A stretch of 64,000 bases of DNA from a virus: positions 39,265 through 103,264 of IMG/VR virus record IMGVR_UViG_3300037504_000888; one strand, given 5' to 3'. The notes beneath the pieces were generated by a model. The model saw only the letters and a list, made by a program, of their open reading frames with translations, had not been told where the DNA came from and did not search any database. The translations under genes were made by a program, and so were the position numbers. Positions 3,645-64,000 of the stretch are shown here, one piece after another; within the stretch, counting starts at the first letter, position 1; every line of letters starts with the position of its first letter.

Positions 3645-6521
3645 ATGTCCGAGTGGGACTCCTTTTTCAAACACGCTCGCGTCAAGACGAAGCTGAAGTC
3701 CCATCAGGAGCGCGTCGTCGAGCGTATGAAGAGCGAAGACCAGCCGGGGTTGGTCGTCGCTCATGGGCTTGGTAGCGGCAAGACGCTCACGTCCATTGCT
3801 ACGCAGGACGCCCTGGGCTTGCCCGCTACGGTGGCCGTCCCAGCGGCGCTGCAAGCGAACTACCGCAAGGAGATGGACAAGCACCTCGAAGGCACCAGCC
3901 CTGAGGCGTCCTTGACTACCTTGCAGCGCATCAGCCGCGCCGGCGACATCGGCCACGCCAACCCCATGTTGGTGGTCGACGAAGCCCACAAGGCCCGTGA
4001 GATCAACACGAAGACGTACAAGGCGTTGAAGAAGGGTATTGAGAATACCGACAAGCGGCTGCTACTCACCGCCAGCCCCTTCTACAACCGGCCGAACGAC
4101 ATCGCCCCACTCGTAAACCTGGCCGCCGGCGAGACCGTCCTCGAGGCGCACCCGACGGACTTCAAGAAGAAGTACGTCAAGGAGCGCGTCATCAAGCCAG
4201 GGCTCATCGGCAAGTACGTCAAGGGCGCGCAGCCCGGTGTTGTCGAGGAGCTGAATCCCAAACAGAAGGCGTTCCTCGAGGGCACCTTCCGTAAGTGGGT
4301 CGACTACCACCCGAACTCGACTGAGGGCTTCCCCGAGGTGAAGCGGCAGCAGGTCGAGGTGCCGATGACGCAGCGCCAGCTTCAGGCGTACGACGCCATG
4401 ATGGGTACGGCGCCGCCCTGGCTGGCACACAAGGTGAAGAAGGGCCTGCCACCCAGCAAGCAGGAGTCGAAGGAGCTCAACGCATTCATGAGTGCGGTGC
4501 GGCAGATCTCGAACACCACCCGTGGCTTCTCTCCTGAGGAGAAGCCGCAGGAGCCGAAGATCGAGACCGCCTTCAACCGCATGCAGGACACGCTGAAGAA
4601 GGACGAGGATGCCAAGGGGGTCGTCTACTCGAACTTCCTCGAGTCGGGGCTCAAGCCCTACAAGGAACGGCTGCAGAAAGCCAACATTCCGTTCGGTGAG
4701 TTTACCGGCGATATGAAGAAGAAAGAGCGTGACCAGCTCGTTCGGGACTACAACGAGGGTAAGAAGAAGGTCCTGCTCCTCAGTTCCGCCGGTGGTGAGG
4801 GGCTTGACCTAAAAGGCACACGGCTCATGCAGGTCATGGAGCCGCACTGGAATGCGGAGAAGCTCAAGCAGGTGGAAGGCCGCGGGATTCGCTTCAAGAG
4901 CCATGACCACCTGCCTCCGGAGAAGCGCAACGTCACAGTGGAGAACTACCTGGCGACGCGGCCTCCACGGAAGGGGCTCTCGAAGCTGGTGCTAGGCAAG
5001 GATAGCGGCGGCAGTTCCGACCAGTACCTACGGCAAATGAGCGAGGACAAAGAGAAGCTCATCAAGCAGTTCAGGAGCCTCATGGAAGACGACCAGGAGA
5101 AGACCTCTGCGGCGACCAAGTTGGTGAGCCCAGACCTCTTGGCGCTGCCACATAAATACGACCTGACACCAGGAAGTAGCTCCGCGAAGAAGGTAGATCA
5201 CATTGCTGAGGAGTTTGGAGAGTCCGGCTACGACATGGAACGACCACCGCTGGTGGGGTACGAGGTGGCGCCCGATGACATCCAGCTACTTGATGGAGGG
5301 CACCGCGCTCAAGCAGCTCAACGGGCGGGCATTGACGTGCCCGTGCTGGTGAAGTCTCGAGACGCTATGCTAGCGGCACGTGACACCCCCGAGTGGGAGG
5401 CGTTTGGGCACACCGACACCCCAGCCAAGGATCTGTTGAGCGATGGGAAGACAACTATGAACGCAGCCGACATCGTCAAGGAAGCCAAGACCCTCGGCGG
5501 CTTCTACAAGGGCAAACCGAGTTCTCCCGACACGGTGAAGAAGACCGTGGAGTTTCAGGGCCTGAAGATCAAGGTGGATCGCCCCAAGGGGTTCATCATG
5601 TTCGGTGAGGACTCCAAGGGAGAGGAGTGGAAACGCAAGTACAAGGTCGACTACGGCTTCATTCCCAAGACCGTGGGCGGCGACGGTGATGGACTCGACG
5701 TCTTCATTGGACCGAACAAGAAGAGCAAGAAGGCGTTCTGGGCCGTACAACGGAAAGACGATGGCACCTTTGACGAGTACAAGGTCTTCGTCGGCTTCGA
5801 CAACCGCGACGAGGCGGTGGCTTGCTATCGGGCGCACATCCCGAAGAAGTACTTCGGGAGGATGATCACTATGACGGTGGAGATGATGAAGGCAATGCTG
5901 GGGACCAACCCTGACGAGGTCGTTGAGGGTGTAAAGACAGCGGAGTGGGCTGGCTTTTTCGACGAGGTAAACAAGCTAGCCGCGCTGGTTCTCCCAAACA
6001 AGGCTCGGGGCTTCATGGGGCGTGCTGACGAGCTTTTGCAAGGGGGACGGGTGGGCAAGTTGAAGGACGTAGCAGAAGAGGCCGTGCGTACCGCCAGGCT
6101 GGTTGACCCCTCTACACAGGGAGGGGAGGCTGAGATCATGCGACGGGCGTTCGAAAACGTCGCCAACAAGGCCAAGAAGGAGAGCAGGTCTGAGGCACGC
6201 AAGGTGCTTGGTGCCCGCGCGGGCCTAACTACCGCCGTTGCGGGCACCGGTGTGGGTGCAGGTGTCGGCGGTGGGATGCTTCTCAAGAAGAAGCTGCAAC
6301 CTGGGGAGAAGACGGTGGAGGCTGCTTCCAAGTTGGCCGACTCCAGCGTCTTCATGGACGACCCTCGCATGGCGCAGCAGATGGCTATGATGCGTCGGCA
6401 GCAAGGCCACCCCGGCATGCCCCCGCCCATCACCAACCTCAAGCACCCTGGTAACAAGCACCTGAAGCTGGCGTTGCTCGAAGCCGCTATTCAGGGCACG
6501 GCGGGAGTCGGGAGTGTCTGA
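3645..6521 (+). CDS. Polyvalent protein: SNF2-family helicase + ParB/Srx-like domain + inorganic pyrophosphatase-like domain + Gly-rich tail
   Basis: HGLGSGKT, VVDEAH, LTASP, SAGGEGLDL, QVEGRGIR (SF2/SNF2); PPLVG...LLDGGHRAQAA (ParB); DYGFIPKT..GDGDGLDVF...DEYK (PPase-like). Confidence 0.8.
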   Translation: MSEWDSFFKHARVKTKLKSHQERVVERMKSEDQPGLVVAHGLGSGKTLTSIATQDALGLPATVAVPAALQANYRKEMDKHLEGTSPEASLTTLQRISRAGDIGHANPMLVVDEAHKAREINTKTYKALKKGIENTDKRLLLTASPFYNRPNDIAPLVNLAAGETVLEAHPTDFKKKYVKERVIKPGLIGKYVKGAQPGVVEELNPKQKAFLEGTFRKWVDYHPNSTEGFPEVKRQQVEVPMTQRQLQAYDAMMGTAPPWLAHKVKKGLPPSKQESKELNAFMSAVRQISNTTRGFSPEEKPQEPKIETAFNRMQDTLKKDEDAKGVVYSNFLESGLKPYKERLQKANIPFGEFTGDMKKKERDQLVRDYNEGKKKVLLLSSAGGEGLDLKGTRLMQVMEPHWNAEKLKQVEGRGIRFKSHDHLPPEKRNVTVENYLATRPPRKGLSKLVLGKDSGGSSDQYLRQMSEDKEKLIKQFRSLMEDDQEKTSAATKLVSPDLLALPHKYDLTPGSSSAKKVDHIAEEFGESGYDMERPPLVGYEVAPDDIQLLDGGHRAQAAQRAGIDVPVLVKSRDAMLAARDTPEWEAFGHTDTPAKDLLSDGKTTMNAADIVKEAKTLGGFYKGKPSSPDTVKKTVEFQGLKIKVDRPKGFIMFGEDSKGEEWKRKYKVDYGFIPKTVGGDGDGLDVFIGPNKKSKKAFWAVQRKDDGTFDEYKVFVGFDNRDEAVACYRAHIPKKYFGRMITMTVEMMKAMLGTNPDEVVEGVKTAEWAGFFDEVNKLAALVLPNKARGFMGRADELLQGGRVGKLKDVAEEAVRTARLVDPSTQGGEAEIMRRAFENVANKAKKESRSEARKVLGARAGLTTAVAGTGVGAGVGGGMLLKKKLQPGEKTVEAASKLADSSVFMDDPRMAQQMAMMRRQQGHPGMPPPITNLKHPGNKHLKLALLEAAIQGTAGVGSV

Positions 6522-7054
6522 TGAACCTGAAAGCCCTCATCGCCGTCCTTCTCATCCCCGCCACGACCTATGCCGGCGGGGATGACGTCGTCAAGCGCCC
6601 GGAGATTCCGGTGCCGCAACTCACACTGAAGTACGCCCCTGAGCCACTCATTCCAGTGCCCGACGGGGACGACAAGATCGAATTCGTGCGCCAGGGTGAT
6701 GAGGTCCCGTTCAGCGGCCAGCTCTTCGACCCGGCTACGGCGCTGCGCTGGGCTCACTACCTGCAGCAGGCCAAGCTCCGGCTCAAGGAAGACGTGGTAT
6801 ACGAGCGTCGCGTCTGCAACGCCCACCTCGACTACCTGGGCAGTCGGCTCGAGCTCGAGGTGGCCTACAGCGAGGCCGTGGAGAAGGACCTCCGCGCCCG
6901 CGTGTTGGATCTTGAGCAGCGAAACTCCGACATGCAGGAGGAGCTCCGTAGCCCACCCTGGCACAAGTCCAGAGCATTCGGCATAGCTATCGGAGTAGTG
7001 GGAACGTCGCTCGTCGCAGGCCTTAGTGCCTGGGCGGTCATCGAGTCTAGGTAA
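6521..7054 (+). CDS. Secreted coiled-coil protein with C-terminal TM (possible spanin-like lysis accessory)
   Basis: Signal-peptide-like N-terminus (MNLKALIAVLLIPATTYA), heptad region, C-terminal hydrophobic helix. Confidence 0.35.
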   Translation: MNLKALIAVLLIPATTYAGGDDVVKRPEIPVPQLTLKYAPEPLIPVPDGDDKIEFVRQGDEVPFSGQLFDPATALRWAHYLQQAKLRLKEDVVYERRVCNAHLDYLGSRLELEVAYSEAVEKDLRARVLDLEQRNSDMQEELRSPPWHKSRAFGIAIGVVGTSLVAGLSAWAVIESR

Positions 7055-7063
7055 GAGGTAACA

Positions 7064-10021: not shown

Positions 10022-10033
10022 GCGAGGCTGATC

Positions 10034-13276: not shown

Positions 13277-13291
13277 CCTCAGGAGACGACA

Positions 13292-13765: not shown

Positions 13766-13777
13766 GGAGCTTGAACC

Positions 13778-15743: not shown

Positions 15744-15768
15744 TAGTTCGACCTACATACTTGGAGCT

Positions 15769-46200: not shown

Positions 46201-49200
46201 CGACCCGTCTACGCTCATTCCGCAGGGCGGTGGCAAGACCGGCGGTCAGTCGATGGGTAACCTCGGGATGTACTCGTTGTTGGCCCACGGCGCCAAGTCG
46301 AACATCCGAGAGATGCAGACTTGGAAAAGCGAGGGCCCCGACCCGCGGGAGAAGTGGGACTCGCAGCACATTGATGTATGGAAGGCGATGATGACGGGCG
46401 AGGAACCCCCTCCACCCAAGAAGACCTTCGCGTTCCAGAAGTTCGAGGACATGATGCGCGCCAGCGGTATCAACATCGAGCGCAAGGGCAACAAGATGCA
46501 GCTCGTGCCCCTCACCGATGCGCAGGTACTAGAGATGTCTTCGGGCGAGGTAAAGAACTCGAACGCTGCAGTGGGTTGGGCAAAGGACAAGCAGGGAGAG
46601 CCCAAGCCCATCAAAGACGGCATCTTCGATCCACGCCTGACGGGTGGTCACGGTGGCAAGAAGTGGAGCCACATGACGCTGCCCGAGCCGATGCCGAATC
46701 CGGTTTTCGAAGGCGCCATTCAGAAGGTGCTGGGGTTGACTGAGAAGCAGTATGAGGCTGTCGTCACTGGCGAAAAGGGCATCAAGGACGGCAAGGTCGT
46801 CTCCGCCAATGAACGAGGGGCGAAGTTTGGGGGTGGTGCCATCGCCGGCATGCTCGAGAAGGTCGATCTCGACTCCGAGTTGAAGAGGGCCGAGAAGGAA
46901 CTGAAAGAGATGAAGTTGCCTGCGGACTTGGCACACCGTGATGGTACTCAGGCGGTTGACAAGACGGCGAAGAAGGTACGCATGCTACGGGCGCTGAAGT
47001 CCGCCGATATGAGTCCCAAGGACGCCTACACCATCAAGAACCTGCCGGTCATGCCCCCGATGATGCGCCCAGTGAGCTTCCTGCCCAGCGGCGACATGAG
47101 CGAGGCGGATATCAACGCGCTCTACACCCGTTTCGGCGGCATCGCTAAGAACATGAAGGACCCAGACTGGCGTGGTCTGCCGACGTCCAAGAAGAAAGAA
47201 GACTACTCCAAGCTTTACGACGGCATGCGAACGTTGATGGGGGTCGGTCCCAACTGGGATAATCGAGGTAAGCAGCCCAAGGGATTGCTTCTACAGATGG
47301 CCGGCAAGAATCCCAAGTCAGGCTATTTCCAGGATACACTGCTCAGTCGTAGGCAGGACATGACGATGCGGGGCACCATTACCCCCGAGCCGCACATGAG
47401 CATTGACGAGGTCGGCTTGCCCACGGCCAAAGCAATGGACTTGTTTCGCCCCTTCGTCGTCGAGAAGCTGCAGACCATGGGTCATGCAAGCTCGCCGCGT
47501 GAGGCGCTCGATATACTATCGAAGGAGCGCAAGAAGAAGCTTCCGAACAAGGCCGTGACCAAGGCGCTCGACTTGGTCATGGATGAGAGACCCGTCATGC
47601 TCAAGCGCGACCCGTCGCTACACAAACACAGCGTACAAGCATTTCGAGCGCGCCGTGCACCAGGCAAGGCCATCCAGATCCACCCATTGGTGACCGGCGG
47701 CTTCAACGCGGACTTCGATGGGGACACGATGGCGGCGTACGTGCCGGTGGGCAAGGACGCCGTCAAGGAAGCGTTCGACATGATGCCGTCGAAGAACATC
47801 TACAACGAGGCAAGCGGCAAGGTGATGTACACGCCGAGCCTCGATTCCAGTCTGGGTCTCTACAAACTAAGCCGGGTGACGGGAGACTCGAAGAAGGAGT
47901 TCAAGACCCACGCCGACCTACTGAAAGCGGCGCAGAAGGGTCAGGTCTCGATGACCGATACGGCTACAGTCGGCGGCAAGAAGACCACGGCTGGTCGCGT
48001 CATGCTCGCCAGCTCTGTGCCGGAGAAGATGTCCAATACCATGCTGCACGACCTCAACTTGAAGCTTGACAAGGGCGGCGTGAATCGCGTCTACACGCAG
48101 CTCGCCAAAGAGCACAAGGATGAGTTCGGAGACGCCGCTGGCAAGCTGATGAACTTGGGGTACGAGGCCAGCTTCGGTGCAGTGAAGGTTCAGAATCCCT
48201 CCACCAAGGGCACGGCCTTTGCTGTCGAGAAGGAGGGTGAGGACCCGAAGAAGCATGTGCAGTTCCTTCCCATGGGTGGTACGCACTCATTCGGGCTCAA
48301 GGACTTTTCCCCCGACAAGTCGGTGCGTGACCCGATCATCAAGACAACGCAAAAGAAGGTTGAAGACATTCAGAAGAAGACAGGTCTCTCCAAGAAGGAG
48401 AAGGATCGGCAGATTACCGAGCTCTGGTTCGATGCCACCGAGAAGATAGAGAAGAAACACGAGGAGAAGAGCAAGAGGAGTCCTAACAACCTGCAGCTGA
48501 TGAAGGAGGCTGGCGTCAAGCCGAGCCCTGACCAGTACCGCCAGCTCACACTGGCTCCGATGCTGCTCACCGACAGCGCCAACCGGGTACTGCCCAAGCC
48601 GGTGACGAAGAGCTACTCCGAGGGACTCGACGTGGGCTCATACTGGAATCAGATGAGCGGTGCTCGCCGCGGTAGCGTGTTGAAGGTGCAGGAGGTGCAG
48701 GACCCGGGCTACTTCACCAAGCGTCTGATGAACGTCAACATGGGTTCGCAGGTGTCTGCGGATGACTGCCAAACGGGGCGTGGCGTAGCGATGAACGTCG
48801 GCGACCAGAACATCTACGACCGTGAGTTGGCACAGGACATGAAGGTCAAAGGGGCGGTGCTCCCCAGGGGCACAACGTTGACTCCTGACGTTGTGCAGAC
48901 CATCAAAGCTGCAGACAAGAACGCGAACATCTTGGTGCGCAGCCCACTCAAGTGCCAGCACGATAGCGGTATCTGTCAGCATTGTGCGGGACGGTCCCCC
49001 GACGGTGACTACTACAAAAAGGGCACTAACGTTGGCGTGCTAGCGACGCAGGCGCTGGGTGAGCGGTCGACGCAGCTCACGCTAAAGGCGTTTCACTCCG
49101 GTGGGATCGCCAAACGCGACCAGGGCCTGGTCAACGACTTCAAACGCGTTCTCGAATTGACGGAGATGCCAAAAGACATCCCGAACCAGGCGACTGTAGC

Positions 49201-49915
49201 CATGAAAGGTGGGACTATCACGAAGGTCGAGAAGGACCCCACGGGCCTTCTCGTTCATGTCGGGGGGCGCAAGCACCTCATTCCCAAGGATCAGTTCGGC
49301 AACCCGTTGTGGGAGCCCCTGAAGGGCAAGGAGACGGCTGGGTGGAAGCCACCCAAGGTCGGTGACAAGGTGGCCCCAGGCCAAGTGTTGAGTGACCCCA
49401 GCCGTACCAACGTCAACGTGCGCGACCTCTACAAGGCCACCAACAGCATTGAGAAAGTGCAGAACCACATGGTGAATGAGCTGCACGGTATCTACGGCAA
49501 AGAAGGCGTGCGGCGCCAGCACGTCGAGCTCGCGGTGAAGAACATGTCGAATATCACACGGGTGGAAGACCCCGGAGACGACAGCGACGTGATCAAGGGC
49601 GACTTCGTGGCCACATCCAGCCTGCAGGGGAAAAACCGCGAGTTGGTGAAGAAGGGCAAGAAGCCCGTCATGCATAAGCCGGTGTTGAGAGGCATCGACG
49701 TGATGCCGCGCGAGGTGCAAGAAGACTGGATGGCGAAGATGAACCACAACCGCATCCGACAGACCGTCGCCGACGCAGCGACCTACGGACAGGCATCTGA
49801 GCTACATGGGACCAACCCCATCCCTGGTATGGCCTACGGTGCTGAGTTCGGCATGACTGAGAAGGACAAGCGCCTCAAGCCGCATCTCAAAGACGTGCCG
49901 GAGTGGGCTTACTGA
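43292..49915 (+). CDS. Single-chain multisubunit-type DNA-directed RNA polymerase (beta-beta' fusion)
   Basis: beta: TPEG..TG, GLNFEDG, GDKMTGRAGNKG, NPSGVPGRMNMGQ, GGQSMG; beta': KRDPSLH, FNADFDGD (core 47705-47725), GARRG, GYFTKRL, QALGERSTQLTLKAFH; GGAGG RBS. Confidence 0.95.
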   Translation: MAYTDPKEAFEDLKAATLEGLTANFPITGKKQTIELDGLEVKEDHLDPDDIETQHEAKVKGKSWAAPIYGNLVMRNTATGDVVDRKRVKLGDVPHMTKRHAYIVNGGEFQVDNQWRLKPGVYVRRTKGGVGRVESQFNVPNRSNFAVTYDQDKRTFKMKRGKSEAIPVYPLMKELGVDDDELEKTWGKEILEANKSARAKTNALEAFFKADKKRAPKDKDEARQYFHQVMRESELRKDSTELTMGKSFDHINGDLFKRATTKMIKVMNGDEQEDERDSLVFKDLRTAADHVKERLTSPNVQKAIKARTDRKIDQSDSIRQVIKGELFSAPLKQTFTSNALSRDADQVNPVEMLASSFQTTVMGAGGIQSDHTLSEEVKLISPSHLGFLDPVKTPEGGRTGVTLRLPMGVEKSKDGRPVIPVYNVKTGKMEQIDPLQFHKSRVVLPDQVKWEKGKPKPIGESVVMSQKGNEIEDGSFNDAQYVLTKPSQMFSMTTNLIPFLGNNSGNRATYAATQMEQAISLQGREKPLVQSGTGSRDIKTFEDFVGRNSAQVSDTDGEVIAVNKKHVSIKRPDGTVKKVGLYNNFPLNDQKSVLTSEPKVKVGQKVKKGDLVADNNFTEDGSLALGTNLVSGYVPFKGLNFEDGVVISESAAKKMSSVHMHKPSITVGKDLVTDVKNFYVNHPTTFTKDQKNLLGDDGVVKVGQKVMPGDPLVLASKPYESKGSLSLHKLRKSMSNQHMDQSLTWKSDYPGEVVGVHRNKKGELSVHVKTIEPMQIGDKMTGRAGNKGIVTAVLPDSEMPQLKKGLQTNVGAKDLVGKELQKDAVIGGKKYQAGTKIDNSLAQEMRQKDPNAAVVVKQNLEVALNPSGVPGRMNMGQVLETAAAKIAKKTGKPYVVENFRSHDDAITKVQKELKDHGLEDQEDLVDPVTGQSLGKALVGPQHLFKLNFQIDKKVSVRSGMHLEGAEPEGYDPSTLIPQGGGKTGGQSMGNLGMYSLLAHGAKSNIREMQTWKSEGPDPREKWDSQHIDVWKAMMTGEEPPPPKKTFAFQKFEDMMRASGINIERKGNKMQLVPLTDAQVLEMSSGEVKNSNAAVGWAKDKQGEPKPIKDGIFDPRLTGGHGGKKWSHMTLPEPMPNPVFEGAIQKVLGLTEKQYEAVVTGEKGIKDGKVVSANERGAKFGGGAIAGMLEKVDLDSELKRAEKELKEMKLPADLAHRDGTQAVDKTAKKVRMLRALKSADMSPKDAYTIKNLPVMPPMMRPVSFLPSGDMSEADINALYTRFGGIAKNMKDPDWRGLPTSKKKEDYSKLYDGMRTLMGVGPNWDNRGKQPKGLLLQMAGKNPKSGYFQDTLLSRRQDMTMRGTITPEPHMSIDEVGLPTAKAMDLFRPFVVEKLQTMGHASSPREALDILSKERKKKLPNKAVTKALDLVMDERPVMLKRDPSLHKHSVQAFRARRAPGKAIQIHPLVTGGFNADFDGDTMAAYVPVGKDAVKEAFDMMPSKNIYNEASGKVMYTPSLDSSLGLYKLSRVTGDSKKEFKTHADLLKAAQKGQVSMTDTATVGGKKTTAGRVMLASSVPEKMSNTMLHDLNLKLDKGGVNRVYTQLAKEHKDEFGDAAGKLMNLGYEASFGAVKVQNPSTKGTAFAVEKEGEDPKKHVQFLPMGGTHSFGLKDFSPDKSVRDPIIKTTQKKVEDIQKKTGLSKKEKDRQITELWFDATEKIEKKHEEKSKRSPNNLQLMKEAGVKPSPDQYRQLTLAPMLLTDSANRVLPKPVTKSYSEGLDVGSYWNQMSGARRGSVLKVQEVQDPGYFTKRLMNVNMGSQVSADDCQTGRGVAMNVGDQNIYDRELAQDMKVKGAVLPRGTTLTPDVVQTIKAADKNANILVRSPLKCQHDSGICQHCAGRSPDGDYYKKGTNVGVLATQALGERSTQLTLKAFHSGGIAKRDQGLVNDFKRVLELTEMPKDIPNQATVAMKGGTITKVEKDPTGLLVHVGGRKHLIPKDQFGNPLWEPLKGKETAGWKPPKVGDKVAPGQVLSDPSRTNVNVRDLYKATNSIEKVQNHMVNELHGIYGKEGVRRQHVELAVKNMSNITRVEDPGDDSDVIKGDFVATSSLQGKNRELVKKGKKPVMHKPVLRGIDVMPREVQEDWMAKMNHNRIRQTVADAATYGQASELHGTNPIPGMAYGAEFGMTEKDKRLKPHLKDVPEWAY

Positions 49916-49916
49916 T

Positions 49917-51170: not shown

Positions 51171-51173
51171 CGT

Positions 51174-51818: not shown

Positions 51819-51858
51819 CTTTGGTTCTGAACGCCCTGGAGAGGATAATCAAACCGAC

Positions 51859-53955
51859 ATGACTCAGCCGCTGTTTCATACCCTGGACGAGTTCATCGAA
51901 AAGACGGCCGGCGAGGTCAACCTCCCGGACGACCCGAACCAGTGGGCACAGAGCATCCTGCAGGAGCTCTACAAGCAGGTTCCGTACATCACGGATTACC
52001 AGCCGCACGTCCAGATGCAACGGGTCGATGCCGAGCGAGGTTACGGCCTAGGTCACGTCGAGATTCAGAACCAGACCGAGGCGCCGATGAATACGGACCC
52101 GGAGATGCTCGAAGCGACGGGTGTCCGCACGGTCCGCATTCCGTTCGTCATCAAGGAGAAGAAGCTCTCCCCGTTCGACCTGCTGGTGAACGACATGGGC
52201 AAGATGCTGCCACTCACCGAGAACCGGTTGAGGCAGGCGCTCTTCCGGCCTCAGGCGTTCGACGTTACTTCGAGGACCCCAGGCGACCAGAGCATGATCG
52301 GACAGCTCTACCCGCCCTACCGCCAGAACTACGGCTTCGGTGGGGGCGGCATTTCCATGAACGCTAGTGGCGGTATGGGGATGGGCAAGGTGGGTTCCGC
52401 CCTCGAGAACTTCCTCGACCCCGACGCGAAGACCGCGTCCAAGGCTCCTCCACAGCCCTTGCCGAAGAAACGGGGCTTCACCAAGTCCGCTGGCAGCTTG
52501 TTGAGCAACATTCTTCCGACCATCACGAGCGCTGACCACCAGCGCTTCACCGACGAGCTGCAGAAGAGCGCCAGTTACCTGTATGCGAACGCCAGCCTGT
52601 CGTGCGACTCGTTCAACGACATCCTCGGCGCCATCGTGAATACCGAGCCCAGCATGGAGAAGGCTGGCAGTTGGAAAGCATGGCTGCCCACCAGTGTGGC
52701 ACAGGTGCGTAGAACCAGCGACGGCTACGCCGTGAAGACGGCCAGTCATCACATCTGGGACCCCGACGAGGAGATCGTAGACCGGGGCGAGGTGGTGCGC
52801 CGCTTCGGCGTGAAGGTAGCCATGGACGCCGACACCAGCGGGGCCGTGACGGTCTCTGACCAGGAGGGTGTGACCGGCGAGGAGAGCCTCAACGAGATCG
52901 CCCCCGTCACCAAGCCAGGGTTCTACAAAGTCAAAGAGACCACCGGCAAGGAGCACATCGGCTACGTCGTTCCGTCACTCATCGACCTTAGTGGTGAGCT
53001 CGTGCCCATCGCCTTGTTCACCAACGGCAGCGTCGTTGCCGTACAGGGAGAGATCTGGGGGGAGGACGTGGGTGAGGGTACTGAGCTGCCGAGCGGCCCT
53101 GTAGGCAACGACGGCGCGTTCTACCAGATGGGTGAGGATGGCATCGAGATGACGGTGCCCTTCAATTTTCAGGACTCCTACACTTTTGGTACGCAGCCCA
53201 AGGTATTCCGAGGCACGACCTTCGACGGACGACCGAGCGAGGTCAGCGTGCAGCCGAACCTGGCAGGGGTCACTCCGGTCGACAACGGTCGCGTTCTGGT
53301 GCCGGAGGACTGGAACTGGTTACCTCTCGACGGTGTTGACACGGTGGTTCTGGTGGGTGGCGAGGAGGCCGACAGCCTCGACCCGATGGACAAGGCATCG
53401 TGCGTGCACGTGCGCAGCGACGGAGACAGCTTCAGCTTCGAGGGCGTACCCTTGGCCAAACTCGGCGCTGCTCAGACCCAGTGGCTAGCGCTCGACGACG
53501 CTATGTTCCTGCTTGCCGGGCTCGGCGTGAACCAAGAGCACGGTGTGAAGAAGCTGGCTGAGGCCGCGGCCTTCAAGGCTCCGCAGAGCATCCGCATCGG
53601 GCGCGTCATCGAAGACGGCGCTACACACATCAAGGAGTCGATGGCCCGCGCTGCCGAGCTCGTGGAGGGCATGTCCGCGTTCAAGCAGCCCATTTTGCTC
53701 AAAGAGGCCACCACCTTCCCCGACCCCACCACAGTGGACACGGTCCTCAGCCTCGGGTTCATCAACCCAGAGAACGTCCTGAGCTTCGTCGGCTACTTGC
53801 CGGACCTCGAGGACGTCCAGACCAAGCTCTGTGAGCTGCTCTTCAGCGTCCGTATCGGTCTGAAGAACATCCCTCAATCGGCGCTCGAGCGTGCCATCCG
53901 TTCTCTCGAGGAGACCATCGAGGGCTTGAAGGTTCTTGGCTTCCAAGGCTCCTGA
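51859..53955 (+). CDS. Large head-module protein rich in K-x-A motifs
   Basis: About twelve KTA/KSA/KVA/KLA/KEA-type motifs; preceded by GATAAT -10-like element. Confidence 0.6.
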   Translation: MTQPLFHTLDEFIEKTAGEVNLPDDPNQWAQSILQELYKQVPYITDYQPHVQMQRVDAERGYGLGHVEIQNQTEAPMNTDPEMLEATGVRTVRIPFVIKEKKLSPFDLLVNDMGKMLPLTENRLRQALFRPQAFDVTSRTPGDQSMIGQLYPPYRQNYGFGGGGISMNASGGMGMGKVGSALENFLDPDAKTASKAPPQPLPKKRGFTKSAGSLLSNILPTITSADHQRFTDELQKSASYLYANASLSCDSFNDILGAIVNTEPSMEKAGSWKAWLPTSVAQVRRTSDGYAVKTASHHIWDPDEEIVDRGEVVRRFGVKVAMDADTSGAVTVSDQEGVTGEESLNEIAPVTKPGFYKVKETTGKEHIGYVVPSLIDLSGELVPIALFTNGSVVAVQGEIWGEDVGEGTELPSGPVGNDGAFYQMGEDGIEMTVPFNFQDSYTFGTQPKVFRGTTFDGRPSEVSVQPNLAGVTPVDNGRVLVPEDWNWLPLDGVDTVVLVGGEEADSLDPMDKASCVHVRSDGDSFSFEGVPLAKLGAAQTQWLALDDAMFLLAGLGVNQEHGVKKLAEAAAFKAPQSIRIGRVIEDGATHIKESMARAAELVEGMSAFKQPILLKEATTFPDPTTVDTVLSLGFINPENVLSFVGYLPDLEDVQTKLCELLFSVRIGLKNIPQSALERAIRSLEETIEGLKVLGFQGS

Positions 53956-54638
53956 TGTACCCCTCGTTTTTCGACGAGATGCACAAGATTGCGGACGCGG
54001 CTCAAGCTGCACCTGCGCCCAACCCGGTGTTGGACAAGATGAAGGCCAGGGCTGGCGAGATGGGTGTGCCCATTCGGACCTTCATGGACATGTTCACTGA
54101 CTTCGAGGACAACCTCACCGAAGAGGGTAAGAACCTCGATGAGAAAGGCCGACAGGAAGCAGCCACACAGATGGAGCGGGATCTTACGGCCTTCTACCAC
54201 CCCGACAAGCATTCGGTGTACCTGGGAGAGAACATAGACCCGGCCATCCTGGCCCATGAACTCGGCCATGCGGATCAGAAGGGGAGCCTCATCCAGAACA
54301 GGGTGGCTCGAGAACTTCATAATTCTAGCGCACCTGTTGGGGCTTTGACCGGAGTGGGGCTGGCGGCGCTCCGGGGTTCTGATATGTCGCACCCAGCGGT
54401 GAACGTGGCTGGTGCGGCGCTCCCTGTGGTGATGGGGGCACCCACGATGGCGAACGAAGCCATAGCGTCTTTCAAGGGCTACAAGATGCTTCAGGATGCG
54501 GGGGCTAGCGCGGATGAGCTCAAAGGTGCTCGAAAGCGGTTGCGCAAGGCTTTCGGCACCTACACAGTGGAGCCGCTTGCTGGAACGGTGCTGTCTACCG
54601 CCGGCGCGGTTGTCCCGAAGAGCCTCTTGCAGTCGTAG
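53955..54638 (+). CDS. HExxH zinc metallopeptidase with hydrophobic helices
   Basis: LAHELGHA...NEAIAS; N-terminal FFDEMHKIA. Confidence 0.65.
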   Translation: MYPSFFDEMHKIADAAQAAPAPNPVLDKMKARAGEMGVPIRTFMDMFTDFEDNLTEEGKNLDEKGRQEAATQMERDLTAFYHPDKHSVYLGENIDPAILAHELGHADQKGSLIQNRVARELHNSSAPVGALTGVGLAALRGSDMSHPAVNVAGAALPVVMGAPTMANEAIASFKGYKMLQDAGASADELKGARKRLRKAFGTYTVEPLAGTVLSTAGAVVPKSLLQS

Positions 54639-54684
54639 ATTCTGCAGTTCTTGACGTCGTGGCTGTAATCCGCCACCTTCTTCG

Positions 54685-58134: not shown

Positions 58135-58846
58135 GAAAGTAGATGTGGTCGTGAAGAACGTGCGTGACGGGATCGGCGTCTGTCTCGGGGAACTCGGTTC
58201 GTGCGAAGGACACCCCTCGTCGCTTCGTAACGTAGACCCACGCAGCCTGCCTGAGGTTCCGACGCGCTACTGCGAGCTCCACGTTGGCGGCTACGACCTT
58301 GTGGTCGTAGAGCTCTCCAATGGCCGGGCAGTCCTCGTACAACTTTTGGGCCATATCGAGGAACGGTCTCCATGGTTCGGCATGGTCGGCGTAGCATTCG
58401 ACGAGGTGAAAGAACTCCTCGTGAATGCCGAAGAGGAGCTTGCACCACTCACGAACGTCAGCGAGGCTCAGCTTTGGCTCCAACACGTCCTTCTGAGCCT
58501 TCCAGAGCAACCCAAGAACCTCGTTTTCATCGCTACCGACACGGGCTGCAGTGACCCCCTGCATCCGTTCGAGCATCTCTACGCGACGCTCGAGCGCGCT
58601 GTTCCGAGCTGAGAGTTGTACGATGACCTCCTGCATCTCGAGGAGCGTAGGTACCCGCCGTTCTTCCCGGGCTTGGGCCAGTGCCGCCACCTCTTCGCGG
58701 TCGAACCTCAGGTTTTGTCTCAGCTGCCCGACGCCCCGCAGTGCCCCGGTGCGGTGCATCGTGTAGACTGTTTGGGTGTCAACGCCGAGGATCTCGGCGG
58801 CCTCTTTCGCTGGAATGCCTTCTGTTCCCATGCTCGTTCGCGACAT
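58100..58846 (-). CDS. MerR/excisionase-type (HTH_17) DNA-binding regulator with coiled coil
   Basis: AKEAAEILGVDTQTVY....G.L......LRFDREEV. Confidence 0.7.
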   Translation of the reverse strand: MSRTSMGTEGIPAKEAAEILGVDTQTVYTMHRTGALRGVGQLRQNLRFDREEVAALAQAREERRVPTLLEMQEVIVQLSARNSALERRVEMLERMQGVTAARVGSDENEVLGLLWKAQKDVLEPKLSLADVREWCKLLFGIHEEFFHLVECYADHAEPWRPFLDMAQKLYEDCPAIGELYDHKVVAANVELAVARRNLRQAAWVYVTKRRGVSFARTEFPETDADPVTHVLHDHIYFPNPGRRGPSKG

Positions 58847-58866
58847 GATACTCCTGGTATAGGCCT

Positions 58867-59856
58867 ATGACCCAGTACGATCTACCTCCTCAGGCTGCTC
58901 TTCAGCAATCTTCAGCACGTCCGCTGTCCGGTGAAGAGCTCGAGACGTATGGCAAACACGCCGCCGCGAAGTACGCATGTGGCGAGTGCTGCAGCCTCAA
59001 TGCGGCCGTTGTCGAGACGGTCAAACAAGCGGGTCTGAGTCCCGAGCAGGTGAAGCGGGTCTGCGAGTTCGCCAACACCGATGCGTTCCTCAAGGAGTTC
59101 AAGAAGGAAGCGGCTTCTTCGAAGTACGTCATGTTCGAGAGCGGCCCCGCCGACTTCAGCGAGGTCCTCAAGGACCTGAACGATGGCGGCGGTGGTAGTG
59201 TCTTCGACCGCGGTAATGCGGACTACGCCCACGCCCCAGCCGTGGTGAAGATTGGCGCTGCTAGGCAGCAGTCGATGGAGAAGACTGCTAGCGCCGACCA
59301 GAAGTCTTCTCGTGCCGATGAGGTTCTCGCCGACGCCTTTGCCATCGACAAGACAGCAGAGCCACTCCCCTACGCCAACTCCCTACAAGATGTCCACGAG
59401 CTCCAAGACAAGCTCTCGACGGCGCGCGACAGCGCAACCGCGGAGTTGTCCGCCTTGGAGACCATCATGCTGGACGCCACCGAGGACTTGTACCAACGCG
59501 TCAAGCAGGCCGCCCTCGAAGGGATGCCGCTCGGTCACGTGGTTCAGGCGTGGGACCAGGCGCTGGCGCCAAATCCGGCGTTGGTGAAGGCGGCCTTTGC
59601 CCAGATCGGCCCCCGGCTGCAGGAAGAGGGGGTCTTCAATAGCCTCGACGCCCTAGGTCAGAGCCTCACCAAGACGGCGGGCCTCCGGGCGATCGTCGAT
59701 GAGACTCATCCCATCGTGTCGGCCTTTGGGGCCTACTGCGAGGGAACCGAAAAGCTGGCGATGCTCCGTGCCGCCAGGCAGGAGTTCATCGACGGGATTA
59801 ACCAACTGACTCTGTTCGGAAAGTCCGTCAACGAACACTACCCGGAGCAAGTGTGA
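58867..59856 (+). CDS. Head-module protein rich in K-x-A motifs
   Basis: About ten KHA/KQA/KEA/KTA/KLA motifs; LSPEQVKRVCEFAN. Confidence 0.6.
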   Translation: MTQYDLPPQAALQQSSARPLSGEELETYGKHAAAKYACGECCSLNAAVVETVKQAGLSPEQVKRVCEFANTDAFLKEFKKEAASSKYVMFESGPADFSEVLKDLNDGGGGSVFDRGNADYAHAPAVVKIGAARQQSMEKTASADQKSSRADEVLADAFAIDKTAEPLPYANSLQDVHELQDKLSTARDSATAELSALETIMLDATEDLYQRVKQAALEGMPLGHVVQAWDQALAPNPALVKAAFAQIGPRLQEEGVFNSLDALGQSLTKTAGLRAIVDETHPIVSAFGAYCEGTEKLAMLRAARQEFIDGINQLTLFGKSVNEHYPEQV

Positions 59857-60692
59857 TGAACCCCATCGACGAGTACATCATGGCCAAGGAGGCCGCCGGG
59901 TTCGGGAAGAAGGTCGGCGACTTCTTCAAGAGCGACCCTGGTCGGATCGCCGCAGGCGCCATCGGTACTACAATGGCAACAGCAGGACTCATGGCGGCTC
60001 CTACAGCGGCCAACAAGGTCTATCAGGCGGCTACGAAGCGACAACGCTTCAACGAGATGTTGGACATGAACACGGACCTTGCTGCCTTCAAGAACGAGTC
60101 GCCGGAGGCTGAGAAGCAGTTCAACGCCATGTACAACTCGTTGCACCGGCTCAGCCCCAAGTTTGCTCGTGACCCTCTCGTTGCCGGCAGCTACATGCGG
60201 CAGATGACGATGAATCCCGACAATGCGGGAAAGGTACTCGTCGAATCGATCAAGGGCCACCCCGCCTCCAGCATGCCCAGCATGGGCGACGCGTGGCGCG
60301 CCGGCGCTGGAGCTGGTGGGCGCGTGGTTGGTATGGGCATCGAGCGCGGCATGGACCCGAACTACGGAGCACAGCAGAGGCTCAAGGGCATGGAGCTCCA
60401 GAGAGGGCTTCGAGATGTCGGTCGCGACCTTGCAGTGCCCGACTCTCGTTACCAGATGGAGCAGGAAAAGCGGGACCTCGAGCTGCAACGAGATGTCGGG
60501 AAGGTTCAACAAGATCTGGCTGGGCCCACCCCGCTCGAGACGCTTCGCGAAGAGGCCGAGGAAGCGAAGCTCATCTCTGAACTTGGCAGTCGACCATCTC
60601 CGAGCTACGACCAGATCCGTAAGAACGTTGCTGAGATGGAGCTGGAAGCAAAGCAGGAACGGCTGGCGAAGGATATGCACGGCGGACAGTAA
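59853..60692 (+). CDS. Head-module protein with hydrophobic helices and coiled coil
   Basis: N-terminal IDEYIMAKEAA; tiles the operon. Confidence 0.55.
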   Translation: MMNPIDEYIMAKEAAGFGKKVGDFFKSDPGRIAAGAIGTTMATAGLMAAPTAANKVYQAATKRQRFNEMLDMNTDLAAFKNESPEAEKQFNAMYNSLHRLSPKFARDPLVAGSYMRQMTMNPDNAGKVLVESIKGHPASSMPSMGDAWRAGAGAGGRVVGMGIERGMDPNYGAQQRLKGMELQRGLRDVGRDLAVPDSRYQMEQEKRDLELQRDVGKVQQDLAGPTPLETLREEAEEAKLISELGSRPSPSYDQIRKNVAEMELEAKQERLAKDMHGGQ

Positions 60693-63688
60693 TGCTCAAG
60701 GTCAGCACGTTCGCGTCCGAGAACGAGCTGGGCTACACGGCGGTTCCGCTTTTTGGCCCAGCAGACGGGGAGTTCGAGAAGAACGCTAGCGCTTCTCTTT
60801 TACCTCCAGTTCTCCAGTACATCGAGACTCTGCGGCCCAAGAAGGACTCGCAGTACGTCTTGGTGAACGCTTTGGCCGCGGGTGAGTACTTCGGATGCTT
60901 CCCGGCAGGCACGCTCGTCGAGACCGACACGGGGGAGCAGCCCATCGAGGAGGTCGAGCCGGGAGCGTTGGTTCGGACGCACCTCAACCGGCACCAGAAG
61001 GTGCTGGCGCGCATCCCGAAGCAGGCTGATGAGCTGTGCGACCTCTACGTTCAAGGGTTTCCCAGCAACCTTCCATCGTTGACGGCAACCCCCAATCACG
61101 AGCTCTGGGTTGTCACCCGTCAGGACTTCGTTCAGACGAAGCGTCGGGTGGTCTGGAAGGGCGACACCAGCACTTCTGTGGAGCAACGGCGTGAGCAGGC
61201 GTTAAAGGAGATGGAGTTCTCCTGGGTGCCCATCGGCAGTCTTCAGCCGGGAGACTACATCGCTGAGCCTTTCCCGCTGGATGAAGACCCCGCGGCGCTG
61301 GGGGATGAGAAGTGGAACTGTCCCGAGGTGGCGTTCCTCATGGGGCTGTATGCTGCCGAGGGGTGTACTGTTACCCGCGCAGAGCGTCCGGGGGAGAACC
61401 ACTACGTCGTCTACGTCACCTCTTCTGAGGAAGAGCAGGTCATCCAGCGTGCTGCACAGCATGCTGAGAAGTTCGGGTACTCATTGTACACGGACCGCTC
61501 CAAAGTTACGTCCATCAGAGCCGAGCTACATTGGCAAGACTTTGCACGCTTGTGCTACGAGCACGTGGGCAAGCTGGGTCCACATAAGAAACTAAGCGCA
61601 GCGCTGACCCGCATGCCGCGTGGGTGGCAGCGTGTGTTCCTTGCCGCCTATGCCGCCGGGGATGGCTGCGTTCGTCAGGGTGGGAAAGAAGACGGGTCGC
61701 AGCGGATGGTATCTGCATCGGCAGCGCTCCTTCGCGGCATGCGTCTCATTCTTGCGCGTTGCGGCCTTGTTGGTTCCATTAGTGGACGCCACAACAAGAA
61801 GGCGACGTGGTACAACGGCAGCCCCATCTACGAGCTCAGCGTTAGCGGGGGGCAACTCAAGGGGCGTGGAACGCCGAAGAGTTACTTGCACCCGGATGGC
61901 TACATCCTTTCTGCGGTGAAGAGGGTTGAGCAGTACGCTTGGCAGGGGGAGGTCTACGACCTGACGGTTGAAGAAGACTCTTCATTCGTCGCATCGGGCA
62001 TCTGTGTCCACAACAGTAATATCAATGGCGATTTCTTTCCTGAGGCGGCGCTCATCCACGCTCCCAGTGGTTGGACGAACAACCCGGTTGTAGATAAGGC
62101 GCTGGCGAAGGACTGGCCCTACGGGTTTCCGACGTTCTACAACGCTCATCCGTACGCTCACCACCGCAACAAGGACCCCAGTCGCGCCTACGGTGAAGTC
62201 GAGCTCGCGTTGTGGAACGACCAGATGAAGCGCGTCGAGCTCGTAGTCCGTGTCGACTACGACAAGTGTGTGCAGTTCGGCGGCGTGCCCGTCTGGGACA
62301 AGCTGGTCAAGGGGCAGTTTCCAGACGTCAGCATGGGGAGCAAAGTCCCCTATGACACCAGCTCCATCACACTGGACTGGGAGTTGTACCGCAAGGCGCA
62401 GGAGACCTTCGACCCGAAGAAGCACAAGCATCCGGGCATCGCCGTCCTCGAGTTTCACAAGAAGCTCAAGAAGAAGGATGGCAAGGGAATCCCCGGCGTC
62501 TCCATCACGCGGGACGACTACGACGAGTACTGTACCAAGCACATGAACCGCATCCTGCCCGATGGCAGGAAGGTGTTCGTCTACAACGACTACCCCCGCT
62601 TCTTCGACATCAGCTTCGTGTTCATCGGCGCCGACCGCACGGCGAAGACCCTGGTCTACATTCACCAGACCAAGGACAAGCCCAGTGTGAAGATCGCTGA
62701 GGCAGGCGAGAAGGTTGCCAGCGTGCAGCAGAAGTGCCTGAATGCCGTCATGGACCTAGCCGAGGCCAACCCGGGCCTTACCGTGATGACTGGTCCTGCC
62801 GACAAGAAGTACGACACGCGCCACTTCTGGGCCGTGGACAAGAAGGGGAAGGTTCACGACCCCACCCGCAGCGACTACAAGCACTACTCCCAAGGCAAGC
62901 CCCTCGACATGGCGGCCAATGCGGAGGCGCTCGGCGAGATTCGGAAGACAGCGGCCATTCCTGAGGAGAACTTCGTCAGCGCCCTCATCAAGGGTGCGGA
63001 ACAACGCAAGCGTGCGGAGATCGAGAAGGAGGTCGTGCCGAGTCAGTTGGCGAGCAAGGCCATCCCCGTGCTGACGAAGACTGAGTCGGACTTGCCAGAC
63101 GAGCTTATCAACGCCATGGCAGCCAAGCCGCTCGACGAGGCGCTTTCTACCTCAAGCGGGCTCTGTATGGTGATCAAGCCGCGTGAGTTTCAACGCATTG
63201 TACTCATCCGCGCCGGTAAGAAGCCGCTAGCGGATGCGCTGGACGACCGGGGCATCCTCTTCCCCAAGACGGAGGAGAGGGACGAAAGCCTGCAACTTTC
63301 TGAGGAAAAAGTGCTTCCGGCGCTCGCCAAAGCGTTGATGCCGATGTTCGACATGAGGTCGGCGATGGCACCTGCGATTGAACGCCGTGTTGTAATTGCG
63401 TTCAACCCGTCGATGGGTGATGTAACGCCTACTTCCCTTCCTTCAGAAGACCTCCGTAAGATTGGAGCTGCATACAGCGCGTACCGCAATCAGCTGATCG
63501 ACATGGCACCCCACGCTCAAGACCTCATCACTAAGACTGCTTCGTCGAAGGACGTCGAGCTCATGAAGGTGGCAAGTGCCGATGCTGATGATATTTTCAC
63601 CCATCTATCCTTCCTCTACATGCGGGATGCCTACTTGGATGAACTCCCGCTTGGTGATGAAACGGAGTCGATGGTACAACTTTCGTAA
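60692..63688 (+). CDS. Prohead (head maturation) protease, HK97/assemblin-like fold, intein-containing, with long C-terminal extension
   Basis: Exteins GEYFG|SNINGDFF, HH.NKD....GEV, DVSMG (catalytic Ser), FFDISFVFIGAD. Confidence 0.7.
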   Translation: MLKVSTFASENELGYTAVPLFGPADGEFEKNASASLLPPVLQYIETLRPKKDSQYVLVNALAAGEYFGCFPAGTLVETDTGEQPIEEVEPGALVRTHLNRHQKVLARIPKQADELCDLYVQGFPSNLPSLTATPNHELWVVTRQDFVQTKRRVVWKGDTSTSVEQRREQALKEMEFSWVPIGSLQPGDYIAEPFPLDEDPAALGDEKWNCPEVAFLMGLYAAEGCTVTRAERPGENHYVVYVTSSEEEQVIQRAAQHAEKFGYSLYTDRSKVTSIRAELHWQDFARLCYEHVGKLGPHKKLSAALTRMPRGWQRVFLAAYAAGDGCVRQGGKEDGSQRMVSASAALLRGMRLILARCGLVGSISGRHNKKATWYNGSPIYELSVSGGQLKGRGTPKSYLHPDGYILSAVKRVEQYAWQGEVYDLTVEEDSSFVASGICVHNSNINGDFFPEAALIHAPSGWTNNPVVDKALAKDWPYGFPTFYNAHPYAHHRNKDPSRAYGEVELALWNDQMKRVELVVRVDYDKCVQFGGVPVWDKLVKGQFPDVSMGSKVPYDTSSITLDWELYRKAQETFDPKKHKHPGIAVLEFHKKLKKKDGKGIPGVSITRDDYDEYCTKHMNRILPDGRKVFVYNDYPRFFDISFVFIGADRTAKTLVYIHQTKDKPSVKIAEAGEKVASVQQKCLNAVMDLAEANPGLTVMTGPADKKYDTRHFWAVDKKGKVHDPTRSDYKHYSQGKPLDMAANAEALGEIRKTAAIPEENFVSALIKGAEQRKRAEIEKEVVPSQLASKAIPVLTKTESDLPDELINAMAAKPLDEALSTSSGLCMVIKPREFQRIVLIRAGKKPLADALDDRGILFPKTEERDESLQLSEEKVLPALAKALMPMFDMRSAMAPAIERRVVIAFNPSMGDVTPTSLPSEDLRKIGAAYSAYRNQLIDMAPHAQDLITKTASSKDVELMKVASADADDIFTHLSFLYMRDAYLDELPLGDETESMVQLS
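60896..62014 (+). mobile_element. Intein (373 aa) with LAGLIDADG homing endonuclease
   Basis: Block A CFPAGTLV, block B TATPNHELW, blocks C/E LMGLYAAEG and LAAYAAGDG, blocks F/G VYDLTVEEDSSFVASGICVHN, +1 Ser. Confidence 0.95.
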
Positions 63689-63785
63689 CAGGCGCAAGCC
63701 AGCGTGGAGAGGGGCCTCCCCTCGAGGAAGCGTGGACGGAATCTGAGCGAACCAGAGCGAACCAGACCACACCCGGAGATGAACC
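63672..63785 (+). promoter_or_regulatory. Extended -10-like element and ~100-nt repeat-containing leader
   Basis: TGGTACAAC at 63672; AGCGTGGA x2; GAGCGAACCA x2 tandem; GGAG RBS. Confidence 0.4.
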
Positions 63786-64000
63786 ATGGGAATGAACCCC
63801 ACTCTCGCTGCCATGTACAACACCCACGGAGCCGGACAGGCACTGCAGGAAGAGCAGGTCAAGGTTGCGCACCTCGACCTCTTCGCCAAGGCCGCCATGG
63901 CCAACGGTATCGACCTCAGTCAGCTCGACGATGAGACGAAGAACGAGCTTTTCGCCGAATTCACCACCAAACTCGCCGAGGAAGACGGCGGCGAGGAGGG
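63786..64000 (+). CDS. Scaffold/head protein candidate, 3'-truncated
   Basis: MGMNPTLAAMYNTHG...QVKVAH...FAKAA...FAEFTTKLAEEDGGEE; follows the prohead protease. Confidence 0.55.
   Translation, partial: MGMNPTLAAMYNTHGAGQALQEEQVKVAHLDLFAKAAMANGIDLSQLDDETKNELFAEFTTKLAEEDGGEE

Follow-up and report, generated by a model that had tools for sequence, protein, structure and literature searches.

A Lys-x-Ala motif as the candidate recognition signal of a gp21-like capsid-maturation protease in a largely uncultured clade of large phages

The maturational proteases of herpesviruses (assemblins) cut at (V/L/I)-x-A|S, with a hydrophobic residue at P3, Ala at P1 and a small residue such as Ser at P1'. 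The prohead protease gp21 of phage T4 recognises (L/I)-x-E, and this motif is concentrated in the scaffold and core proteins gp22, gp67 and gp68 encoded beside the protease gene; it also occurs at the protease's own ends, and the internal proteins IPI–III and Alt carry it at the end of a capsid-targeting sequence, a short N-terminal leader shared by unrelated proteins. The proteases phiKZ gp175 and SPN3US gp245, which act in large heads where numerous proteins are processed, use an (S/A/G)-x-E or A-X-E motif, present in several copies in propeptides that are either short (20–24 aa) or long; the protease removes its own C-terminal piece, and the sites cleaved by SPN3US gp245, at the end of A-X-E, have V at P4 and S at P1' (PMC10052503). 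InPase and DdrB-type ParB belong to the phage-type polyvalent domains that are predicted to be packaged and injected, and the processing of polyvalent proteins has been attributed to an MPTase domain of zincin-like type that they themselves contain (Iyer et al. 2017, PMC5512222). The stretch analysed here, referred to as the window, comprises 64,000 nucleotides and forms the terminal part of one viral contig of 103,264 bp with ~60% G+C (IMG/VR record IMGVR_UViG_3300037504_000888, positions 39,265 to 103,264), about half a genome. It includes a putative capsid-maturation (prohead) protease gene and several head-module genes whose products are rich in Lys-x-Ala (K-x-A), a motif for which a literature search revealed no report in connection with a head protease.

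The expected number of K-x-A sites was estimated from 1000 shuffles within each protein, which keep its composition, and P values are from the Poisson distribution. All features of the window given below are on the plus strand. K-x-A was enriched three- to fourfold in open reading frame (ORF) 33136 (33136–34566, 476 aa; 13 sites observed and 3.4 expected, P = 6e-5), ORF 51859 (51859–53955, 698 aa; 8 and 2.5, P = 4e-3), ORF 58867 (58867–59856, 329 aa; 10 and 2.8, P = 7e-4), the 5' part of ORF 63786 (63786–64000; 3 and 0.7 in 71 aa, P = 0.03), which is cut by the contig end, and the exteins of the protease encoded at 60692–63688 (998 aa), which contain 8 of its 10 sites; the form h.K.A[ASG], where h is hydrophobic, was found in the protease 4 times with 0.4 expected. 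When all gapped residue pairs were compared in this set, K-x-A was by far the strongest (42 observed, 14.8 expected, z = 7.7). Elsewhere among the window's proteins it was at the chance level (116 observed, 117.3 expected, z = –0.1); hence fibres and replication enzymes, where a previous sequence-only reading of the window had found the motif scarce, are not depleted in it, merely unenriched. The excess that this reading had noted in head proteins holds after correction for composition, though only for K-x-A: over the whole proteome K-x-[AGS] shows no enrichment (z = 0.2), and the count of ~12 sites proposed for ORF 51859 is reached only if K-x-[GS] is included. By the same shuffles, the SNF2–InPase protein of ORF 3645 (8 observed, 9.2 expected) and the RNA polymerase of ORF 43292 (19 observed, 16.1 expected) were not enriched, and no excess was seen in ORFs 35432, 53955 and 59853. 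Paralogy was rejected as a cause of the enrichment, since there were no BLAST matches among the K-x-A-rich proteins and no internal repeats, and common ancestry of the 58867 and 33136 families was rejected at a profile-comparison probability of 0.5%.

The closest complete relative, G001 (IMG/VR 3300002243_000001; 191,080 bp, direct terminal repeats), is syntenic with the window in the reverse orientation. Its head genes are arranged in the order terminase (TerL), the ORF 58867 orthologue, protease, an acidic 303-aa protein, proteins of 680, 123 and 178 aa, and the major capsid protein (MCP; phrog_2522, E 2.7e-5); the capsid gene of the phage represented by the window lies outside it, past the contig end. 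Orthologues of the K-x-A-rich proteins are enriched again in G001, as are products of head genes located outside the window's contig, namely the 680-aa (14 sites, 6.4 expected) and 123-aa (6 sites, 1.4 expected) proteins. The G001 capsid gene, used as a query, retrieved 253 related IMG/VR stretches with 70–86% identity, many of them on contigs of 185–195 kb, which therefore make up a large uncultured clade. Cultured relatives are distant: TerL is ~26% identical to those of known phages, and the protease domain is 32% identical to gp222 of Salmonella phage Arash and to its counterparts in Vibrio phages D69, D148 and D181. The phage represented by the window, of ~190 kb, is itself uncultured; the enrichment is seen again in orthologues from the clade of >250 IMG/VR contigs and from the cultured phage Arash.

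In 80 related loci grouped by ortholog family, the ratio of observed to expected K-x-A sites was 3.9 for the 58867 family (44 orthologues), 4.75 for the 123-aa family, 3.1 for a 168-aa family, 2.2 for the acidic 63786 family (41 orthologues) and 1.9 for each of the 680-aa and protease families, as compared with 0.47 for TerL and 1.27 for MCP. K-x-A was also the top outlier in Arash gp218–225 (44 observed, 19.8 expected, z = 6.6), with L-x-K second, and was flat in the Arash tail and baseplate genes. As a control, the same unbiased gapped-pair test was applied to T4 gp67, gp68, gp21 and gp22, and the top two pairs were I-x-E (z = 4.3) and L-x-E (z = 3.8), with 16 occurrences in gp22 where 5.8 were expected; T4 non-head proteins were flat. 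The control thus recovered the established gp21 motif, and the signature of K-x-A in the clade is that of a known cleavage motif.

The shape of the motif was defined using conserved sites of the protease and 58867 families (470 alignment cells). Lys occupies the first position (P3) in 438 cells and Arg in 21, whereas the third position (P1) is Ala in 444, with Ser in its place in 10 cells and Gly in 5. The middle residue (P2) is free, the next residue (P1') is A, S or G, P4 prefers V, E or D, and P5 prefers L or F. Fixed residues at i and i+2 with a free residue at i+1 are the pattern of an extended, protease-bound strand. The same P3-x-P1 scheme is shared by T4 (L/I-x-E), phiKZ and SPN3US (A-x-E) and herpesviruses (h-x-A|S). 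The clade resembles phiKZ and SPN3US in the large head, the preferences for P4 Val and P1' Ser, and the presence of a multisubunit-type RNA polymerase gene among the virion genes, but P1 is Glu and P3 is small in those phages, the two clades are unrelated in sequence, and the polymerase beta and beta' parts form one chain in the window. Assemblins differ in a hydrophobic P3 in place of Lys, in having two sites per precursor and in belonging to animal viruses. As compared with gp21, P3 would be Lys in place of Leu/Ile, and P1 would be Ala in place of Glu. K-x-A is present in the N-arm of MCP in nearly all orthologues of the clade and in Arash, where MCP gp226 has LVKEA. The motif is real, specific and ancient, and is placed as expected of a protease signal; the proposal made on the basis of the window that K-x-A serves the head protease has indirect support in that the motif behaves like a recognition motif, with fixed Lys and Ala, free P2, small P1' and retention in disordered linkers. 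Sites were further rated with a context matrix for which two of the families had served as training set, and good contexts were found for 8 of the 13 sites in ORF 33136, all three in ORF 63786, 4 of the 8 in ORF 3645, for which 0.8 were expected, and the leaders of ORFs 53955 and 35432.

The protease gene lies between the terminase gene and the scaffold-like and major capsid genes, as judged by the gene order in G001. It consists of an N-extein (60692–60895), a LAGLIDADG intein (60896–62014; Pfam LAGLIDADG_3, Intein_splicing and Hint_2) and a C-extein (62015–63685), the boundaries of which were set from the intein-free site in G001. The protease domain extends to ~62635 and is followed by a linker (62636–63031) and a helical C-terminal domain (63032–63685). 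Pfam searches with the exteins, including S77 and S78, gave no match even at E 10; PDB sequence searches with the protease and with a 33-sequence profile gave none, and Pfam, PHROGs and NCBIfam revealed nothing useful besides the intein domains. Language-model leads to S77 and S78 clusters were weak (0.90–0.92). An AlphaFold2 model of the intein-free orthologue L024, built with a 33-sequence alignment (predicted local distance difference test, pLDDT, 74), includes a confident domain (residues 9–272), a disordered linker (273–347, pLDDT <50) and a helical C-terminal domain. Residues 9–273 matched T4 gp21 (5jbl) with a Foldseek probability of 1.00 and TM of 0.51; the VIA Z score against 5jbl was 8.8, with a root-mean-square deviation of 3.0 over 140 of 164 residues, and Z values of 3.6–5.6 were obtained with the proteases of pseudorabies virus, herpes simplex virus 1 (HSV-1), human cytomegalovirus (HCMV), Kaposi's sarcoma-associated herpesvirus (KSHV) and Epstein–Barr virus (EBV). 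The protease is predicted by this model to have the T4 gp21/herpesvirus assemblin fold, with gp21 as the closest solved structure, and its earlier designation as HK97-type finds no support in its sequence. The residues H83, H117, H118, S174 and H216 are invariant across 33 protease orthologues. The intein of the window is inserted at GS|NINGD, and the G001 gene (L016:12824–16492, minus strand) has an intein at a different site, directly after DVSMG; such positions appear typical of active-site insertion, and the Ser of DVSMG is the probable catalytic Ser. Most relatives' proteases have no intein.

K-x-A sites are found in three parts of the protease. Upstream of the protease domain, FEKNAS at residue 30 (60779–60787; context score 5.7) is represented by FEK[TVN]A[SAG] in 32 of 33 aligned orthologues. 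Five sites lie in the linker (62690–63016; residues 667, 674, 752, 767 and 773), and one linker K-x-A column is kept in all 33 proteases, though its flanks are not conserved and linker length is variable. The C-terminal sites ITKTAS and LMKVASAD (63533–63574; residues 948 and 959) have context scores of 4.2 and 6.3, respectively, and the latter is kept in 29 of 33 orthologues. The residue-30 and C-terminal sites are located where gp21-type enzymes trim themselves. Unlike gp21, the protease lacks a Pfam S77 match and has a long linker followed by a helical domain at its C-terminus; assemblin, which is cut at internal release and maturation sites, is likewise fused to a scaffold-like C-terminal part. 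The linker of the window's protease is about twice the usual length (132 versus ~65 residues) and includes an insert of ~70 aa (62711–62953) bracketed by GEKVAS and IRKTAA, which may be a further small cargo module.

ORF 58867, located between the terminase and protease genes, encodes a helical protein that is a candidate scaffold or core protein. Seven of its sites are kept in 34–43 of 44 orthologues. In the AlphaFold2 model (pLDDT 84), a disordered linker (residues 108–147), which carries MEKTASAD, connects two helical domains. Most of the remaining sites are at helix C-termini or in loops. Such a structure agrees with a gp22-like helical scaffold that is degraded, though it is not proof of site exposure; a search of BFVD, the one library used, gave no meaningful fold match. 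The full orthologue of the acidic, scaffold-like ORF 63786 in G001 has 12 K-x-A sites in 303 aa. In ORF 33136, the sites are ~22–34 aa apart, and in a 40-sequence alignment (37–67% identity) K35/A37, K66/A68, K152/A154, K182/A184, K237/A239, K259/A261 and K394/A396 are invariant or nearly so and are among the few such residues, whereas the middle residue varies. This protein has 283 homologues, all unnamed, and some relatives carry PF20223 (DUF6582). It includes a YPLD...QVK-x-A-x-AYF block (33880–33960), and the ORF 51859 orthologue in locus L101 has a similar KYPIHDERHAKNAL block as an insert in its variable linker (~6600–6760). ORF 51859 itself has a site in a leader (51883–51909), linker sites (52429–52491) and an internal long-form site (52546–52572); K236/A238, K293/A295, K565/A567 and K615/A617 are invariant in four orthologues, and KTA sites of the variable linker turn over. 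Searches of Pfam, PHROGs and NCBIfam with ORFs 33136, 34573, 36673, 51859, 58867 and 59853 gave no match. ORF 51859 is possibly a portal protein, the only portal lead in the window being its language-model similarity to SPP1-type portals (0.88, below the reliable range). The other portal candidate, ORF 36673 (694 aa), is 68% identical to its G001 counterpart and had no match in a PDB sequence search. Concentration of K-x-A in scaffold-like proteins adjoining the protease gene, as in T4, indirectly supports its interpretation as the recognition motif of the protease.

An extended form of the motif, [F/L]-x-D-E-h-x-K-x-A, had been recognised in the window, and its six instances were confirmed at FFDEVNKLA (5955–5981), MHDEVVKVA (35432–35458), LDEFIEKTA (51883–51909), FTDELQKSA (52546–52572), FFDEMHKIA (53967–53993) and IDEYIMAKEA (59865–59894). 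The strict form DE-h-x-K-x-A occurs four times in the window, as compared with 0.17 expected (P<0.0005), in all four cases in plus-strand genes and never in the other five frames; there are three instances in G001 (0.30 expected). Among 56 distinct instances in the 80 loci, 18 fall within the first 30 residues, with 8.2 expected (P = 7e-4). After removal of the leader, 13 leader-bearing proteins from the window and relatives, including Zn-peptidase-like, Gly-rich, InPase and small proteins and ORF 51859, showed homology in only two pairs, and every leader compared ends in K-x-A. The extended form stands at the N-terminus of about ten non-homologous proteins, as expected of the portable leader that had been postulated; for the loose form, see below.

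Three of the leader-bearing genes are as follows. ORF 53955 (53955–54638, 227 aa) encodes a Zn-metallopeptidase-like protein (Pfam Zn_peptidase_2, E 1.1e-5, 25.6 bits, slightly below the 27-bit cut-off) that begins with MYPSFFDEMHKIA (53955–53993), a leader with a context score of 4.8 and of the type common to non-homologous proteins. ORF 35432 (35432–36676) encodes a Gly/Ala-rich protein of 414 aa that starts with MHDEVVKVA (context score 3.7), and its orthologue in G001 has FEDELLKSA ~12 residues from the start. The leader MMNPIDEYIMAKEA of ORF 59853 (59853–60692, 279 aa) is the weakest because of its poor context score (–4.0) and precedes a Gly-rich hydrophobic segment (59949–59987). No BLASTP match to the latter protein (E<=1e-5) was found among called G001 proteins, and in G001 the protease gene almost directly follows the ORF 58867 orthologue. 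Gly/Ala-rich hydrophobic, glycine-zipper-like segments follow leaders at 59949–59987, 6222–6284 and 35459–35600, as well as in G001 51822 and in small ORFs of locus L087; proteins of this kind might be membrane-inserting ejection proteins.

ORF 3645 (3645–6521) encodes a polyvalent-type protein of 958 aa with SNF2 helicase, ParB-like and InPase parts (Pfam SNF2-rel, Helicase_C and InPase PF18823, the last with E 1.5e-30). Its K-x-A/S sites are located at the module borders: FFKHA (3669–3677), EKTSAA (5097–5114), VKEA (5478–5486), VKTA (5934–5942), FFDEVNKLA (5955–5981) and SKLA (6330–6338); 6222–6284 is its Gly-rich hydrophobic segment. The ParB-like module has no Pfam match; its ParB assignment is based on a DGGHR-type motif and on homology (E 2e-33) with a segment inserted into the G001 protease linker, where KEASAS and LMKEASAD bracket it. 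In locus L064, K-x-A sites of the protease linker flank an InPase domain (PF18823, E 8e-40). The InPase of G001 is free-standing, and its 14-residue leader terminates in VKQA at the junction reading VKEA in ORF 3645, and leaders of the InPase proteins of three more relatives end in ...FLDELQKIA, ...LEEFQKLA and ...FGELRKLA. Like polyvalent proteins, ORF 3645 combines several conflict-type domains in one chain, with modules shuffled between relatives. Unlike in those proteins, an MPTase was not found, the module borders carry the putative motif of the head protease, and the same modules occur also inside the protease gene of relatives; gp21 of T4 differs in the last respect as well. A Pfam search revealed no peptidase domain in ORF 3645, the Zn_peptidase_2-like protein being encoded separately by ORF 53955. 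The 'pyrophosphatase' gp23c of Arash was considered as an InPase relative but rejected for lack of a BLAST match, and was not used. Among the enzymes suggested previously as injected cargo, InPase and the ParB-like module are supported as putative capsid cargo by their fusion to the protease, the Zn-peptidase-like protein is plausible, the K-x-A motif provides no support for SNF2, and the papain-like domain was found by none of the searches. Cargo status is plausible also for small proteins bearing the tag, but for the RNA polymerase the motif again provides no support.

Taken together, a new P3-x-P1 cleavage specificity combined with a T4-like capsid-targeting leader is the probable explanation. 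K-x-A would be the recognition motif of the clade's own capsid-maturation protease of the gp21/assemblin fold, with Lys at P3 and Ala at P1, and the bond cut would probably be the one that links Ala to a small P1' residue (A/S/G). ORF 58867, the 63786 family, ORF 33136 and the protease linker and tail would represent scaffold or core proteins around the protease gene that are chopped up and expelled on head maturation, like T4 gp22, gp67 and gp68. The extended motif at the extreme N-terminus would act as a T4-like capsid-targeting sequence, delivering a protein to the core of the prohead and afterwards being cut off at the K-x-A with which it ends. Effector modules such as InPase and the ParB-like domain would reach the capsid by three routes: behind a leader, as part of a polyprotein with K-x-A borders (ORF 3645) and, in relatives, by insertion into the protease's own linker. 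The analysis establishes the enrichment of the motif, its conservation, the protease fold, the domain fusions and the portability of the leader; cleavage, the scissile bond, packaging and injection are inferred. A more far-reaching proposal, which is put forward tentatively, is that the protease gene doubles as a cargo carrier, in which modules are swapped in the linker or behind a leader of ~10–17 residues and are freed in the capsid at K-x-A.

Several observations weigh against this explanation. Many of the conserved sites in ORF 58867 are in confidently modelled helices, three of them mid-helix, and may have a structural role. The set used in the gapped-pair test was picked after the per-protein K-x-A counts had been seen. 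K-x-A is also mildly over-represented in the T4 core proteins (z = 2.1), and hence part of the signal may reflect a general bias of Lys/Ala helices. The N-terminal placement of the loose h-x-K-x-A form was not significant within two genomes, and many of the 18 N-terminal instances of the strict form are orthologues of one family, so that the P value overstates their independence. The families used to train the context matrix overlap with the scored ones (two of them), and only 2 of the 19 sites in the RNA polymerase, the chance rate, have a good context; neither this protein nor the SNF2 protein is enriched in K-x-A. The published Arash virion proteome, which gives coverage and spectral counts only, comprises 116 proteins, nucleotide-metabolism enzymes among them, and is too inclusive for testing cargo membership.

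The best alternative, which is nevertheless unlikely, is that K-x-A serves for docking and not for cutting: scaffold proteins, the tail of the protease and cargo would all use it to attach to one partner, which might be the capsid protein (on its inner face), the portal or the C-terminal domain of the protease, any cleavage taking place elsewhere. Retention of the motif in disordered linkers and at leader ends suits binding as well as cutting, the i/i+2 pattern suits any extended-strand interaction, and conserved sites in the stable-looking helices of ORF 58867 are easier to reconcile with binding. However, in T4 the same statistical signature marks cleavage motifs of a related system, a density of one site per 25–35 residues in ORFs 33136 and 58867 and the location of sites at module borders of polyprotein-like fusions suit processing better, and the small P1' residue and P4 Val preference parallel the mapped sites of SPN3US.

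Chemical modification or cross-linking of the K-x-A lysines in head assembly (isopeptide formation or acylation), with Ala giving access, is far less probable. Lys is the most strictly kept residue and is rarely replaced by Arg, and capsid cross-linking via lysine is known in HK97, but searches of the neighbouring genes revealed no modifying enzyme beside the K-x-A-rich genes, the sites are commonest in linkers and proteins resembling disposable scaffolds, and the equally strict Ala two residues on, together with the small next residue, is typical of protease subsites. That the motif has no dedicated function and is a by-product of Lys/Ala-rich helices and a shared helix-loop ancestry of head proteins is already disfavoured and highly improbable: the proteins are indeed helical and Ala-rich, several sites are at helix C-termini followed by an S/T-P-E cap, and the mild K-x-A excess in T4 core proteins points the same way, but the excess survives composition-keeping shuffles with no comparable excess of other pairs, the enriched proteins have no mutual homology by BLAST or profile comparison, Lys and Ala persist in ORF 33136 among the few invariant residues around a variable middle one, and the motif is retained in disordered, otherwise unconserved linkers and in Arash, despite the distance of its protease.

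If the cleavage reading is true, Lys-x-Ala would add a new specificity to those known among prohead proteases with the assemblin/gp21 fold, namely cleavage after Glu (T4, phiKZ, SPN3US) and, in herpesviruses, at A|S with a hydrophobic P3. It would then be possible to predict mature ends, the turnover of scaffolds and the cargo of capsids clade-wide, in >250 IMG/VR contigs (~185–195 kb) plus Salmonella phage Arash and the Vibrio phages. The fusions of InPase and ParB-like domains into the protease linker would represent a concrete route by which polyvalent-type effector domains enter virions, and the short portable leader would be of practical use as a tag with which foreign proteins are packaged in a member that can be cultivated. 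Should the protease gene also carry cargo, anti-host enzymes (InPase, the ParB-like nuclease and small domains) would be loaded and delivered in the manner of a virus polyprotein, and the polyvalent protein phenomenon would be linked directly to head maturation.

When the contig end was joined to the contig start, the frame of ORF 63786 was not sensibly continued; hence the record is a fragment rather than a circle. The RNA polymerase gene of the window (43292–49915) is a single ORF of 2207 aa that joins the beta (Rpb2) and beta' (Rpb1) parts. In Arash the same regions are encoded by two genes, gp206 and gp216, and according to the paper describing this phage no protein is more abundant in virion preparations than gp206. 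In the window the polymerase starts with AFEDLKAA, which is only partly kept in G001 (AYTDLKAG).

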